A program made the translations under genes and the position numbers. A stretch of DNA of 64,000 nt, taken from sequence record PZ445436.1. One strand, written 5' to 3'. This document shows, piece by piece, positions 39,667 to 45,035 of the stretch; the first letter of the stretch is position 1; each line of letters starts with the position of its first letter. This DNA is from a phage. The notes under the pieces were generated by a model. The model was given only the letters and a program-made list of their open reading frames with translations. It did not search any database and was not told the origin of the DNA.

Positions 39667-41349
39667 TTAAACCATTACAGTAAATCGACCAACTTTCTTC
39701 ATTTGAAGATGCTGACCATATGCTTGTGGGTCATGGTCTCTATGCGAGATAACAAAAACATTAGTATTTTTTAAACTATCTAAAATAGTTGAAATAGCTT
39801 TTACACCTTCAACATCGGTCGCTGAATCAAAAACTTCATCAAGAATTAACGTGTTTATTTTAACACCTGAAACTTTTTCAGCAATATCACGCCAAGTAAA
39901 TAAAAGAGCAATATCAATTCGTGCTTTTTCACCTTGACTGAATGAAGCATAACTAAAATCTTCACGACCACGGGATTTAATTGTCTCATTAAATTCTTCA
40001 TCTAATGTAAACACATAATCCGCTTCCATTATTTTAAGATAATGGTTAATCTGTTTATTAAATAATGGAATGTACTTTTTAATAATAGCACCTTTAATAC
40101 CAGAATCTTTGAGCATATCAGTCAAAATTCCTCGGTGGTATTTTTCCATTACTAAATTAGTTTTTGTCTTAACAATTTTATCAAGTTCTTCTTGAAGCAG
40201 TGCTATTTCATCAGCATGGTCAATAAACTCAGAAGATGCTTTTTCTATAGCTGCTTTAACTTTTTTAGCTTTATCTACTGTCGTGATTAGAGATTGCTTT
40301 TTATTGCGAATATCATTTGCCAACGACTGCTGGGTTTTAATATTATCTCGGTATTCATCAACAAGAACTTTTAAATTATCACGATGTGTTGAAAGCTGTT
40401 CAAACGAATGCGTACATTCAGAAACTTTATCTTTAATTTTAGAAACAACTTTATCACCGGAACTTAATTGTGACAAGCAGGTTGGACATAATCCACCTTC
40501 GTGATACATATTAATGACTTTATTATACGAGTCAATTTTTGATTTAATTAAAACTGCTTCTTGACCGATTTTATTAAATGCATCAGTCGGGTCTTCATCC
40601 AAAACAATATTAACTAATCTTTCATTAGCTTCTTCTATTTCCGATTTTAACGTTCTAGCTTCTTTTGCCAAATCATCATACATATTCTGTAGACGAGTGA
40701 GGTTATCACCAGTTAATTTTTTCTGGCGTTCAACGTTATCATTATATATTTTAATTTGTTGGATAATACTATCTTTTTTAACATCAAGCACTTGGTTTTG
40801 TGAATTTAATTCACGTATTAGTGCTTTATTAAGCTTATCCATTTCAGCTAATGTTCCTACCTCGAGCAGGTCTTCCACAAGCTTTCTTCGCGCAGGGGTC
40901 GACAAACCCATGAAAGGGGTATACCCTGCTGTACCAAGGACAACAATCTGCTTGAAACTGGCATATGACATTCCGATAAGCTGTTCAAATTCTGCTTGGA
41001 AATCTTTACTGCTGGCAGATTCATTAAGACGTGTACCGTTAACGGTGATTTCGAAAACGTTTGGTTTTTGTCCTCTTTTGATATAGTACTTTTTCTCATC
41101 ATATTCCATCCACAGTTCAACTAAAAGTTCTTTCTTATTTGTGCTGTTTATTAATTGACCTTTCTTTACATCACGAAATGGCTTGCCAAAAAGCCCAAAT
41201 GTGATGGCTTCTAACATAGTAGACTTACCACCGCCATTTCGTCCAGTAATAAGAGTTTTTTGAACCTTATCTAATTGAATGTCAATAGGATTTCCACCTA
41301 CTGACATTATATTTTGATACCTAACTCGGTTTAGTTTAAAATTCTTCAC
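39667..41349 (-). CDS. 46: Recombination nuclease subunit gp46 (Rad50/SbcC-like ATPase)
   Basis: 560 aa as in T4 gp46; Walker A GRNGGGKST, coiled-coil, zinc hook CPTC. Confidence 0.88.
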   Translation of the reverse strand: MKNFKLNRVRYQNIMSVGGNPIDIQLDKVQKTLITGRNGGGKSTMLEAITFGLFGKPFRDVKKGQLINSTNKKELLVELWMEYDEKKYYIKRGQKPNVFEITVNGTRLNESASSKDFQAEFEQLIGMSYASFKQIVVLGTAGYTPFMGLSTPARRKLVEDLLEVGTLAEMDKLNKALIRELNSQNQVLDVKKDSIIQQIKIYNDNVERQKKLTGDNLTRLQNMYDDLAKEARTLKSEIEEANERLVNIVLDEDPTDAFNKIGQEAVLIKSKIDSYNKVINMYHEGGLCPTCLSQLSSGDKVVSKIKDKVSECTHSFEQLSTHRDNLKVLVDEYRDNIKTQQSLANDIRNKKQSLITTVDKAKKVKAAIEKASSEFIDHADEIALLQEELDKIVKTKTNLVMEKYHRGILTDMLKDSGIKGAIIKKYIPLFNKQINHYLKIMEADYVFTLDEEFNETIKSRGREDFSYASFSQGEKARIDIALLFTWRDIAEKVSGVKINTLILDEVFDSATDVEGVKAISTILDSLKNTNVFVISHRDHDPQAYGQHLQMKKVGRFTVMV

Positions 41350-41609: not shown

Positions 41610-41796
41610 TATCTAAAATGTTGAAGTTAAAAGATACAGCCCAGTCAGTGCAGACTGTAACCTTTTTAATACAATTATCTTCAACCTCTAACGGTTCAAA
41701 CCAATATTCAATAATTTCTTTATGCCCAATATCATCTTTTACTTCGCATTCAAAATGCTGACTCATCATAACATTTTTAAATTCATCAAAAGTCAT
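41533..41796 (-). CDS. Hypothetical protein (87 aa)
   Basis: ORF track. Confidence 0.45.
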   Translation of the reverse strand: MTFDEFKNVMMSQHFECEVKDDIGHKEIIEYWFEPLEVEDNCIKKVTVCTDWAVSFNFNILDNDTPKSLQDMAVSCIKDAYCEVFDI

Positions 41797-42812
41797 TGTG
41801 TTGCCTCTACATATAGCTGATTCGCATATTGAATAAGTGCTTCACGGTCAGAATCAGTGATGTCTGGAATTGCATTAATGTATTCTTCCATCAACGTCTG
41901 AAGAGATTGAACTTCAACTTCTTCACTGTCATCTGACTCGACAGAGTTATCAATCTTTGACACAACTCGTAATGAATGCACAACTTTTTCTAGTTCAGAT
42001 TCGAACTTCGTTAGATTTTTGTCTACTTCAGTTACTATAACACGTACTGATAGATTTGTAAAATCTTTATAGTCAATTTTTCCTTTAAATGGATAATGAA
42101 TTCTACGATGCCAGGTAGTATTGTTTGGAATAAATTCCATTCGTTCTGTTTCTGTATCAAACATCCAGAACCCGCGAGGGTCATTCTCGTCACCTGCAGT
42201 TAGTGTCCATGGTGTCCCAATATATCTGACGTTTGCAGCCTCAGAAATAGTATGGAAGTGACCAGACCACACTTCTTTATAAGTCTTAAGGAAATCAGGT
42301 TCAAGACCGTGAGATTTCATTCCTTTATAAAAATAAAATCCATTCAGTTCCCAGTGACCAACGCAAAAAGAAGCAGATGAAGTTTTGATGTGTTCAAGAA
42401 TTTCACCAGTATTTTCTTCACACATCCAAGGAATTAAATCAATTAAACATCCGTCAAAATCTACTGTAGTAGGCTTATCATATACTTTAACATTGGGATA
42501 TTTAGCCAAAAGCTCAGTAGAAGCATTTGGATGCATTACATTTTTGTAGTGGAGATCGTGATTTCCTACAATAGTATGTAATGTGATTCCAGCGTCATCA
42601 AGCATTTGAACTATTTCACGGGCAAACTCCATAGTTTTATGTGTGATTGCTTTTCGCACATCAAAAATATCACCATATTGAATCCATACAGTAATTCCAT
42701 TTTTCTTAGAATATTCTATCGCTTGCTTAATTCCATCAATTTGAATACCGCGAATCCACTCATCATCAGCTTTAACGCCTAAATGCCAATCACCCAAGTT
42801 TAGTATTTTCAT
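41793..42812 (-). CDS. 47: Recombination nuclease subunit gp47 (Mre11/SbcD-like)
   Basis: 339 aa as in T4 gp47; calcineurin-like phosphoesterase motifs (GDWH, GNHD). Confidence 0.88.
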   Translation of the reverse strand: MKILNLGDWHLGVKADDEWIRGIQIDGIKQAIEYSKKNGITVWIQYGDIFDVRKAITHKTMEFAREIVQMLDDAGITLHTIVGNHDLHYKNVMHPNASTELLAKYPNVKVYDKPTTVDFDGCLIDLIPWMCEENTGEILEHIKTSSASFCVGHWELNGFYFYKGMKSHGLEPDFLKTYKEVWSGHFHTISEAANVRYIGTPWTLTAGDENDPRGFWMFDTETERMEFIPNNTTWHRRIHYPFKGKIDYKDFTNLSVRVIVTEVDKNLTKFESELEKVVHSLRVVSKIDNSVESDDSEEVEVQSLQTLMEEYINAIPDITDSDREALIQYANQLYVEATQ

Positions 42813-43440
42813 GGTGTCTTTTCCATCCTAATTTAGCTGCTTTTGAAACCAGTTCTTTAATTTTTCCTTTTGTCCATTCAGGACCAGGAGGTTCATGACA
42901 TAACATTTGCCTAACTCCGTTATTATACCATTTTTTACCTTTATTATGTGATGAAGCTTTAAATTTATTTGACCTTCCTTTTACATAACCTTCTGGAATA
43001 TAAGGCAAAAAGGCAGATTTTCCTGTTAATGGATCATGCGAATGTATATTTCCTTTACAATTATGAGAACCATATAATGGATGATTTTGTCCTTTATTAT
43101 CTCTTCCAAATGAACCTTTTGGAGCAGCATATGACATATTAAAGAATAATGGATTTTTAACTGCATCATGCAATCGTTGATAATATAACTCGCATTTAAT
43201 AGCTTCTTCACGCGTATCAAATTCAGCTAAAATGCATGAATCAAATAAGTGAGGATTATCTGAAAGCTCTTTATTATAAATTTTCTTATACTTTTTAGAT
43301 AAAACTGAACCATGATATCCAGCTAAATGCCTATCTAAAGACGTAGATCCAATATAAAAAGGAGGAAGTTTATCTCCACTATATATTGTTAAATAAGTTA
43401 TATATTTTTTCATATACCAAGAACCGTCATTGAAATGCAA
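42790..43440 (-). mobile_element. Putative GIY-YIG-type (Seg-like) homing endonuclease ORF
   Basis: N-terminal IYSG...(10 aa)...YIGST spacing typical of GIY-YIG; basic K/G/N-rich C-terminal half; weak translation signals; start uncertain (TTG 43440 or ATG 43413). Confidence 0.45.
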
Positions 43441-43548
43441 AATAAAATTATTGAAATAAATCCATCTGGAGTGCTAAAGAACCCAATCCAACATGCTTTA
43501 GTGAATAGATAAAATGCAAGAAAAAGTATCACATATTCAAGAAATATC

Positions 43549-43592
43549 ATTATATCAAACTCCGTATAAAGCTAAAGGGCCGAAGCCCTTTA
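43549..43592 (-). promoter_or_regulatory. Hairpin at the alpha-gt stop plus candidate middle promoter
   Basis: AAAGGGCCGAAGCCCTTT (43575-43592) then minus AGCTTTA, 12 bp, TATAAT (43549-43554). Confidence 0.4.
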
Positions 43593-44792
43593 TTTTGTAA
43601 TAATGTCAAACTGTTCTTTAAAGCAGAAGCTTGAATCTTGATGCTGATACAAAAATTCATAAGCTTTTTCGCGTTCGCGGTCATAAAGAGTTCGGTCAGA
43701 TGACAGTTCTTTAATACGTTCAAATGTTGATTCCATGTCATTTTCATCAAACCAAATGATACCGCTATCATGCGAGGTCAAAGGAGTATTATCAACACGG
43801 AATTTTAAATTTTCGCCAGTAGATTTCCAAAATACCGGAATTGTTCCACATGCACCAAGCTCGAGATGAGTATATTCTAAAGAACGTTGTAGATATTTTT
43901 TATCCAACTTACTCAACTGATAACCAAAACCGGATTTACTCATACGTTCAAGCATTTCGCTATTTACATAACGGTCAAGAATTTGCGTTGGCAAATTAGG
44001 AGCAATTTTAATTTGGTCTACTTGATGAAGACGATAATACTCGTATGGAATTCCTTTTTCTTTAATAGGAATGAACGCTGGAGAACGTTCCAGACCTTCC
44101 ATAATAGTACTTAGTCCTGCAGGTTTAAGATGTTTTTCGTGAAAATCAAACATCTGATAAAAACCTTTCCATGTAGTCGTACGACCAATCCAACGATTGA
44201 TATTCATGTTAATTTCAGAAACATCTTTCCAGTAGGTTGACCGAACCTTCGCAATATCCATAGGAGGCTGAAAGTTATATACTGTCGGTGCTTCTTCAAT
44301 ATCATCAAACAGAGAAACTGTTTCAGGATACCATTCTTTCATCAGAACTTTATTAAAATCACCATTATCAGAATGGCTAAAAATAACATCAGCTCGACGA
44401 ACAGTTTCTTCTAATCCCAAATTTCGGCGCAAAGAAAGAGAAGAATGGTCATGTTGATAAACTACAACACGAACAGAAGGTTTAATGTTATCAATAATTT
44501 TTTTATAGTTATTAATAGTGTCTTCTTCAACCGAAGTAGCAGGAACTGAATTGATAATTAGAATATCACAATCATTTACCAGCTTAAGTGTTTTATCATA
44601 TTCTTTTGCCAATAAAACCGGAATTGAAAATGATTTATAATCATGCGCGCAATTACGAGTAAATGATTTATCTTTAGCATAAACCAAAGTTACTTCATGA
44701 CCATTCTTAATAAACCAATCACGTTGCTCAAGAGAAAATTTAGTTACACCACAACCTTCAAGACCTCGAGCCATAAAAATACATACTTTCAT
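43590..44792 (-). CDS. agt: DNA alpha-glucosyltransferase
   Basis: 400 aa as in T4 alpha-gt; between 55 and 47. Confidence 0.8.
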   Translation of the reverse strand: MKVCIFMARGLEGCGVTKFSLEQRDWFIKNGHEVTLVYAKDKSFTRNCAHDYKSFSIPVLLAKEYDKTLKLVNDCDILIINSVPATSVEEDTINNYKKIIDNIKPSVRVVVYQHDHSSLSLRRNLGLEETVRRADVIFSHSDNGDFNKVLMKEWYPETVSLFDDIEEAPTVYNFQPPMDIAKVRSTYWKDVSEINMNINRWIGRTTTWKGFYQMFDFHEKHLKPAGLSTIMEGLERSPAFIPIKEKGIPYEYYRLHQVDQIKIAPNLPTQILDRYVNSEMLERMSKSGFGYQLSKLDKKYLQRSLEYTHLELGACGTIPVFWKSTGENLKFRVDNTPLTSHDSGIIWFDENDMESTFERIKELSSDRTLYDREREKAYEFLYQHQDSSFCFKEQFDIITK

Positions 44793-44813
44793 TTAATATC
44801 CTCTTTGTTTTGG

Positions 44814-44842
44814 TTTATTTTACCAAAAATTTATAAAGCAAT
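44814..44842 (-). promoter_or_regulatory. Candidate middle promoter for alpha-gt
   Basis: Minus TGCTTTA (plus 44834-44840), 11-12 bp, TAAAAT. Confidence 0.35.
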
Positions 44843-44858
44843 ATAGGAGCCGAAGCTC

Positions 44859-44975
44859 CTATCCACATAATACGCCATACAGAGGCTCGTTAGAACTTTT
44901 AAATTTTATGCGCTTATATTTTATAGTTCCTTCTGCTTTAGCTTTATCATGAGACGCTTTAAAGAGTCTCATCAT
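44859..44975 (-). CDS. Possible small basic protein (38 aa); absent from the ORF track
   Basis: Tandem ATG ATG with SD AAAGAGGAAA; 3' end runs into a GGAGCCGAAGCTCC hairpin. Confidence 0.3.
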   Translation of the reverse strand: MMRLFKASHDKAKAEGTIKYKRIKFKSSNEPLYGVLCG

Positions 44976-45035
44976 TTCCTCTTTAGAGGAACGAATTTTA
45001 TTATAATCTATTTCAGAAGTCTGGGTGTTCATCTT

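Follow-up and report, generated by a model that had tools for sequence, protein, structure and literature searches.

The phage DNA analysed here (64,000 nucleotides (nt) of sequence record PZ445436.1, referred to as the window) is a segment of a Tequatrovirus genome in which a small gene lies between genes 47.1 and 47. This gene, which encodes a 207-amino-acid (aa) protein starting at the ATG at 43413, is called ORF-X. It is probably a free-standing homing endonuclease gene of the Seg (GIY-YIG) type that invaded the 47.1/47 junction, and we put the probability of this explanation as a whole at about 0.8. All genes around ORF-X are on the minus strand. The surrounding 3.2-kb stretch shares 99.1% identity with Escherichia phage PaulHMueller (Bas45) and 98 to 99% with many T4-like coliphages.

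A first-pass annotation, made from the sequence alone, had placed an open reading frame (ORF) at 42790-43440, and the minus-strand frame is indeed uninterrupted from a TTG at 43440 to the stop codon at 42790-42792 (216 aa). The ATG at 43413 was taken as the start because the N-termini of homologues coincide with this methionine (MKKY/MKY/MF), the GenBank records of the closest relatives annotate a 624-nt coding sequence (CDS), and the nine extra codons of a TTG start, which was rejected, are 47.1 coding sequence in phages without the insertion. No Shine-Dalgarno sequence lies ahead of the ATG, which overlaps the TGA of 47.1 (ATGA); gene 47 has the same coupled arrangement in T4. Of the poor translation signals noted at first, the missing Shine-Dalgarno sequence therefore stands but the TTG start does not, the ATG being coupled to the 47.1 stop. 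The gene had also been placed between gene 47 and a-gt, which is correct on the gene 47 side only, the immediate neighbour on the other side being 47.1 (Table 1). The start of gene 47 sits 20 nt ahead of the ORF-X stop codon.

Table 1. ORF-X, its parts and its neighbours, with positions in the window
Feature	Position	Strand	Basis or remark
ORF-X, probable 207-aa free-standing Seg-type GIY-YIG homing endonuclease gene	42790..43413 (stop TGA 42790-42792)	-	ORF list, annotated CDS of relatives, homologue starts, ratio of non-synonymous to synonymous substitution rates (dN/dS)
N-terminal GIY-YIG catalytic domain, aa 1-99	43117..43413	-	Y20-I21-G22; family-invariant Y33, G35, E75 and N92
Basic C-terminal half, aa 100-207, presumed DNA-binding/target-specificity module	42793..43116	-	Composition, predicted strands, motifs shared with Seg proteins
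601-bp segment lacking in T4, T2 and the sampled RB phages	42813..43413	-	ATGAAAA at both ends; T4 alignment, junctions of 17 genomes
Overlap of ORF-X 3' end and gene 47 start, 23 nt, different reading frames	42790..42812	-	Similar overlap in SmallBear and QL01
Candidate immunity changes, gene 47 nt 9, 10, 15 and 18	42804, 42803, 42798, 42795 (42795..42804)	-	Carrier/non-carrier comparison
Gene 47, SbcD/Mre11-like recombination nuclease subunit; presumed target gene	41793..42812	-	Downstream neighbour in every lineage
Gene 46	39667-41349	-	Followed by 46.1 and 46.2 before gene 47
Gene 47.1, 46-aa predicted membrane protein	43410..43550	-	TGA overlaps ORF-X ATG
GC-rich terminator-like hairpin after a-gt, upstream of 47.1	43573..43592	-	Terminator annotated here in related records
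a-gt	43590-44792	-	Preceded in gene position by 47.1

It is very probable that ORF-X is a Seg-type GIY-YIG homing endonuclease gene. The only Pfam family matched by the single sequence, even at E ≤ 10, is GIY-YIG (PF01541; E = 3e-4, 21.4 to 21.6 bits). Sixteen of 50 family members match PF01541 at E ≤ 0.01 and 25 of the 50 match NUMOD3. Across the homologues the N-terminal ~110 aa are widely common and the C-terminal halves vary, many of them containing NUMOD3 repeats. An AlphaFold2 model built on the homologue alignment has a mean predicted local distance difference test score (pLDDT) of 83.7, with values of 93 to 98 across most of the N-terminal domain, which has the alpha/beta GIY-YIG fold (a three-stranded antiparallel sheet, formed by a beta1-beta2 hairpin and beta3, packed on helices). 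The best three Foldseek matches in the PDB are I-TevI chains or entries, the first two at probability 1.00, and further fold matches are to PD-T4-3, UvrC, R.Eco29kI, T4 EndoII and SLX1. Among 65 matches in BFVD (E ≤ 1e-3), the named ones in the best 50 are almost all GIY-YIG, Seg-like, NUMOD or intron endonucleases. The I-TevI and BFVD matches bear out the GIY-YIG fold proposed in the first-pass annotation.

The assignment to the Seg type, also proposed there, is supported by profile-profile comparison. Alignment of the ORF-X family profile with T4 SegA-G by hhalign gave a probability of 97.3% (E = 2e-11, 88 columns), and both share the pattern YIG, GY.GS, (N/L)F, E, N, of which the GY(M/L/H)GS segment is Seg-specific. 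Motifs of the C-terminal half recur in SegE and SegB as described below. Alignment of the family profile with the single I-TevI sequence covered 19 columns only (15% probability); since direct sequence comparison is weak, the link to I-TevI rests on the fold and on the Seg profile.

Two of the residues expected of the active site are well conserved: across 50 homologues, with identities as low as 33%, E75 and N92 do not vary, and they are colinear with E74/N90 of T4 Seg and E75/N90 of I-TevI. Y33 and G35, also invariant in the family, correspond to Seg Y37, S40 and G41, while Y20-I21-G22 is at least 90% conserved across the 50 homologues. The motif residues IYSG and YIGST had been recognized at the outset with a spacing of 10 aa, but with IYSG beginning at residue 10 and YIGST at 20, only 6 aa lie between them. 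In the hhalign register against SegA-G the first half-motif is instead I5-T6-Y7, with 12 aa between Y7 and Y20. The half-motif gap is thus 12 aa (I5-T6-Y7) or 7 aa (I10-Y11-S12), compared with the canonical 10 to 11, and the first half-motif is degenerate. Y7 and Y11 are both nearly invariant in the family.

The C-terminal half (residues 100-207) has an isoelectric point of 10.0 and contains 16 K, 14 G, 9 N and 8 H, with a net charge (K+R minus D+E) of +13, in agreement with its initial description as basic and rich in G, K and N. It includes a NUMOD3-like remnant (NHPLYGSHN) and two beta-hairpin motifs (IHSHDPLTGKSAFLPYIPEGYVKGR and KKWYNNGVRQMLCHEPPGPEWTKGK). In the model, strands are found at 123-126/133-136 and 161-164/169-172 (pLDDT ~86 to 91) and a helix at 186-196. 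The hairpin motifs '...LPYIPEGYVKGR' and 'KKWYNNG...PGPEWTKGK' have counterparts in the C-terminus of SegE ('VPEGFVKG' and 'FWVNNG...IPDGFIKGR') and of SegB ('IPEGWFKGRKM'). Pfam detected no DNA-binding family in ORF-X itself. From its composition, the motifs shared with Seg proteins and the gene 47 context, the C-terminal half is presumed to bind DNA. Homologues that share it are all located at gene 47, and paralogues with NUMOD3 repeats in its place sit at other loci.

Comparison of the interval between gene 47 and a-gt across T-even phages, which had been suggested as a check, revealed a precise insertion of 601 bp relative to an empty site. The inserted segment begins with the ATG of ORF-X, ends with the last base ahead of the gene 47 start codon and has an identical length in all seven carriers sampled. 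In T4, 47.1 abuts gene 47 by an ATGA overlap with no ORF between them. The site is also empty in T2, RB14, RB27, RB33, wV7, AR1, PST, DalCa and IME340. The distribution of the insertion is sporadic: ORF-X DNA was found in 68 phage records, all Tequatrovirus-like, at 95.6 to 99.7% identity and with one copy per genome, and as the T4 junction region was found in 557 records, carriers make up ~12%. The original suggestion of a lineage-specific insertion holds in so far as T4, T2, RB14, RB27, RB33 and most Tequatroviruses are without ORF-X, but not beyond this genus, since orthologues occupy the same place in five other Straboviridae lineages.

The sequences flanking the insertion are mosaic: a-gt alleles differ among carriers while the cassette stays 95.6 to 99.7% identical. 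In the carrier fPS-90 the a-gt allele is of a divergent T4/PST type, with 142 mismatches to the window in 1350 nt, and the other carriers have a T2-type allele (10 to 50 mismatches); both types also occur in non-carriers. An extended co-conversion tract was sought in the flanks and none was found, the carrier haplotype being of the T4/T2 type past gene 47 nt 18 and mosaic farther out. ORF-X accounts for presence/absence polymorphism and local mosaicism in Tequatrovirus genomes, which are used for phage therapy and phylogenetics.

Several other features of this region were observed. The a-gt gene (window ~43590-44760) exists as two deeply diverged alleles (loci L002, L012 and L015): those of T4, PST and fPS-90 differ from the window at 129 to 142 of 1350 nt, mostly in two blocks, and those of T2, RB27 and others sampled at only 27 to 50 of 1350 nt. 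Within gene 47, nt 200-300 (window ~42510-42610) contain ~20 mismatches in IME340, DalCa, PST, RB33 and AR1 (loci L010-L014), compared with 0 to 5 in other genomes; this 100-nt block is a sharp recombination patch, unrelated to the presence of ORF-X. In T4 the interval between a-gt and a-gt.2 holds mobB, an HNH homing endonuclease gene. In the window the corresponding interval (44793-44858), from a-gt to the 57-aa a-gt.2 ORF (44859-45032), contains no gene, as in T2, RB27 and others. The two types of phage thus differ by reciprocal insertions of endonuclease genes on either side of a-gt. Two IMG/VR contigs of ~171 kb (loci L023 and L029) combine a T4-type gene 47 start with other upstream sequence, which has a GAGGAG Shine-Dalgarno sequence and is without 47.1; they represent a third arrangement at the gene 47 junction. 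Finally, ORF-X is also present in PV654520 (Pseudomonas phage vB_PSGBLB0006, 142 kb), a record that names Pseudomonas aeruginosa as host although its identity to this E. coli Tequatrovirus region is 98.2%. Its host label or sample purity looks doubtful.

ORF-X is not a chance ORF, as it was found by tblastn in 173 phage records, matched 170 protein clusters in a large-database search and has a dN/dS between its two allele groups of 0.05 to 0.08 (dS 0.13 to 0.18, dN 0.008 to 0.014). It is clear that the gene is under strong purifying selection. Of the copies sampled, seven out of seven are intact. Apparently damaged copies were seen among other records: ORF-X in ZCEC15 (PQ871103) and KMB22 (OR539217) is off in length by 1 nt, ESh36 (ON528746) and ERS-1 (PP337211) give split tblastn matches, and in KNP1/KNP5 (KX452694/KX452698) coverage is ~63%, with ~37% of the gene missing. 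These copies are possibly decaying genes, or possibly sequencing errors. A minority of damaged copies is as expected in the life cycle of homing endonucleases.

The position directly 5' of gene 47 is occupied by homologues of ORF-X in Klebsiella phage SmallBear and Serratia Winklervirus LC53 (each ~70% identity), Mosigvirus AV116 (~65%), Dhakavirus QL01 (~61%) and Aeromonas Biquartavirus L9-6 (~50%). Their upstream neighbours vary, being 47.1, a-gt.2 or unrelated small ORFs. A paralogue in Yersinia phage TG1 (44%) has the same nuclease domain with a NUMOD3 C-terminus and lies upstream of the gene for the topoisomerase II large subunit. From the contrast between this paralogue and the homologues at gene 47, the C-terminal module appears tied to the gene 47 locus. 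The endonuclease of Tequatrovirus, SmallBear and QL01 ends in His-Glu-Asn; these codons lie in '...C ATG AAA AT', where gene 47 starts in another frame. That the association with gene 47 is kept in six Straboviridae lineages, with overlapping frames, is mildly notable.

This long adjacency to gene 47, together with the overlap of frames at the gene 47 ATG in three lineages and the strength of purifying selection, might be taken to mean that ORF-X is a domesticated or non-mobile GIY-YIG protein of homing-endonuclease descent, kept for the benefit of the phage and inherited mostly vertically with losses. Suggested benefits are exclusion of competitors' markers, provision of the gene 47 translation initiation region through the overlap, or cooperation with the gp46/47 nuclease. 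For SegB, a benefit to its phage through the amplification of anti-defence loci has recently been reported (PMC13096335). However, only ~12% of Tequatroviruses carry ORF-X, and its near-identical copies are found on different flanking haplotypes, for which horizontal spread is a better fit than vertical descent with loss. Moreover, in phages without the insertion the same coupled ATGA serves the expression of gene 47, which hence does not depend on ORF-X, and frameshifted or deleted copies exist. A domesticated or non-mobile protein is considered unlikely.

Equally doubtful is the proposal that ORF-X represents an ancient, stably gene-47-associated Seg lineage that is partly domesticated and has a functional tie to the gp46/47 (Mre11/Rad50-like) nuclease. 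The gp46/47 complex resects the double-strand breaks on which homing depends. Such a tie, if real, could consist of co-expression of the cutting enzyme with the resection machinery, or of exclusion of competitors' 46/47 alleles.

A third possibility is that ORF-X is a decaying or inactive relic, which entered once by illegitimate recombination, no longer cleaves and was spread by ordinary recombination among co-infecting Tequatroviruses. The degenerate first half-motif, the absence of a securely aligned arginine, a Pfam score below threshold and the indels in some copies are all compatible with decay. A dN/dS as low as that of ORF-X means, however, that the protein is maintained; E75, N92, Y20-I21-G22 and GY.GS are kept over the 50 homologues, and none of the seven sampled copies is interrupted. 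A relic is thus quite improbable and, by analogy with the T4 Seg proteins, ORF-X probably encodes a currently active nuclease.

If ORF-X is a homing endonuclease, its target may be sought in the flanks of the insertion. When 1350 nt on each side (2.7 kb) were compared between seven carriers and nine non-carriers, the only fixed differences were at gene 47 nt 9 (T>A), 15 (T>C) and 18 (A>G). A further change at nt 10 (T>C) is nearly fixed: RB14, which has no insertion, has C (and carries this change only of the four), and the carrier P922 has T. Non-carriers read ATG AAA ATT TTA AAT TTA GGT GAT TGG and carriers ATG AAA ATA CTA AAC TTG GGT GAT TGG. As gp47 starts with MKILNLGDW in both, the changes in codons 3 to 6 are synonymous. 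These four changes fall within 10 nt, compared with a local background of a few percent, and adjoin the invariant sequence GGTGATTGGCAT, which encodes phosphoesterase motif I (G-D-W-H). Homing endonucleases typically recognize conserved sequence coding for catalytic sites (PMC2988022).

Database-wide, the carrier-type 60-mer was found in 61 records at ≥ 99% identity and 17 at 95 to 99%, compared with 68 carriers. The 95 to 99% group includes carriers one or two bases away from the query and at least one RB14-like non-carrier. These counts are consistent with linkage of the changes to the insertion. In a pattern scan of IMG/VR, the carrier-type start of gene 47 was found in no contig and the empty-site pattern in eight, all without the insertion, a sample too small to extend the association.

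On our reading, the sequence recognized or cleaved by ORF-X would span the start of gene 47. Because ATGAAAA is duplicated at the two ends of the cassette, insertion would leave the downstream half of this site in place, and protection of the carrier would then come from the silent changes. We slightly favour the view that ORF-X targets the 5' end of gene 47 and that the silent changes confer immunity. This gives a testable target hypothesis, in which the first ~20 to 30 bp of gene 47 would be the target and the four silent changes the candidate immunity determinant.

On the 47.1 side of the insertion, the window has G on the minus strand at 43417, five bases upstream of the ORF-X ATG, where all 16 other genomes sampled have A. 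This changes residue 45 of gp47.1 from Asp to Gly (TVLDI* to TVLGI*). The substitution, seen in comparison with T4, was considered as a target-side change in 47.1 and dropped, as it is private to the window and unlinked to the insertion.

ORF-X appears to be expressed with its neighbours. A scan of the cassette found seven promoter-like sites, compared with 8.1 expected from shuffled sequences, none of which stands out, and a scan for late promoters found no TATAAATA near the cassette. With no outstanding promoter and with a hairpin after a-gt, ORF-X looks promoter-less and part of a 47.1-47-46 transcription unit. Likewise, segC, segF and segG are cassettes without their own promoter (PMC2988022). 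ORF-X has taken over the original coupled start of gene 47.

By analogy with SegA, B, C, E, F and G, the following mechanism is proposed. ORF-X would share a transcript with 47.1-47-46, and its translation would be coupled to the stop codon of 47.1. In a mixed infection with an insertion-free phage, the basic C-terminal module would bind at or near the 5' end of gene 47 and the N-terminal GIY-YIG domain would make a double-strand break. Recombinational repair from the carrier would then copy the 601-bp cassette, with a variable length of flanking sequence, into the recipient. The carrier's own site, disrupted by the insertion and by the four linked changes in codons 3 to 6, would be protected from self-cleavage. 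Nuclease activity, the position of cleavage, self-immunity and homing itself are all proposed from the known systems, in which site-specific cleavage, aimed at the neighbouring gene, has been demonstrated for six of the seven Seg proteins of T4 (Table 1 of PMC2988022).

A number of results weigh against a Seg endonuclease directed at gene 47. Regarding the family, the Pfam score of 21.4 to 21.6 bits is below the gathering cut-off of 22.6. Searches of PDB sequences by phmmer with ORF-X and by hmmsearch with the family profile were not significant, their only hits being bL32 (E = 0.23) and the I-TevI DNA-binding domain (E = 0.069, driven by NUMOD3-bearing members), and a search of NCBIfam gave nothing. 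An equivalent of I-TevI R27 is not securely placed, as the column of ORF-X R28 contains K, R, N, S or E in the family. Regarding the target, the four changes lie inside the 23-nt overlap and alter the tail of ORF-X (FKFR to TKLG). They might just belong to the cassette and be tightly linked to it, with no selection for immunity. Cleavage by free-standing endonucleases can take place hundreds to thousands of bp away from where their genes are inserted (PMC2988022), and therefore the real target of ORF-X could be elsewhere. In addition, the comparison of carriers with non-carriers drew on 17 genomes, out of ~557 records, and on aggregate BLAST counts.

The profile-profile and fold evidence makes up for the sub-threshold Pfam score. 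The alignment of T4 SegA-G is likewise without an invariant arginine, though six of these proteins are proven nucleases. K40, which is at least 90% conserved in the ORF-X family, could from its conservation substitute for the catalytic arginine.

No paper naming or characterizing the ORF-X gene was found in the literature searched. In GenBank it is labelled as a hypothetical protein, 'HNH endonuclease' or 'putative homing endonuclease', and the homologues at gene 47 are similarly annotated as hypothetical protein, HNH endonuclease or homing endonuclease. The label 'HNH endonuclease' is systematic in RefSeq Tequatrovirus records (for example, NC_054916 and NC_054933) and in phrog_10820. That ORF-X really is an HNH endonuclease can be rejected with near certainty: its best PHROG is phrog_10820 (E = 1e-94; next phrog_314, 'homing endonuclease', 7e-18) and many NC_ records carry the same product name, but Pfam gives GIY-YIG alone, with no HNH family at E ≤ 10, the fold matches I-TevI, UvrC, Eco29kI and SLX1, and the profile matches SegA-G. 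The 'HNH' label is an annotation-transfer error, and the analysis flags this systematic misannotation in RefSeq and PHROGs.

Within the known systems, a GIY-YIG homing endonuclease gene at 47.1/47 changes no concept, since T4-like phages are expected to have free-standing endonucleases of this kind beside essential genes of DNA metabolism. ORF-X does, however, add an unnamed member of the Seg family to the T-even repertoire at a locus outside the described seg/mob sites of T4: in line with the initial remark that the T4 seg genes sit elsewhere, the published T4 seg/mob list has no entry at 47.1/47 (PMC2988022). Close relatives are the homologues at gene 47, including that of Klebsiella KP185, which are 50 to 70% identical to ORF-X over the full length, C-terminal module included. 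Those of AV116 (267 aa) and L9-6 (249 aa) differ from ORF-X in having longer C-terminal extensions.

Among the T4 proteins, the best pairwise matches are SegG (27% over 109 aa), whose gene lies between genes 32 and 59, and SegE (28% over 164 aa), encoded between inh and uvsW. Both resemble ORF-X in a length of ~200 to 220 aa, with the nuclease domain at the N-terminus and, in the C-terminal half, a basic module for DNA binding (presumed in ORF-X). Like segC, segF and segG, ORF-X is intergenic and in the same orientation as its neighbours. SegE and SegB share with ORF-X the hairpin motifs 'P(E/D)G(F/Y/W).KG' and 'W.NNG'. With at most 28% identity to any of SegA-G, ORF-X is none of them, and T4 has no such gene at 47.1/47. 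The spacing after the first half-motif also differs, being 6 aa (IYSG-YIG) or 12 aa (Y7-Y20) in ORF-X and 10 in SegA-E. I-TevI, the td intron endonuclease, resembles ORF-X in its order of nuclease, linker and DNA-binding module (the last presumed in ORF-X) and in the nearly identical positions of its Glu and Asn (E75/N90 compared with E75/N92). In contrast to I-TevI, ORF-X is not intron-encoded, and no zinc finger or helix-turn-helix (NUMOD1) was detected in it.

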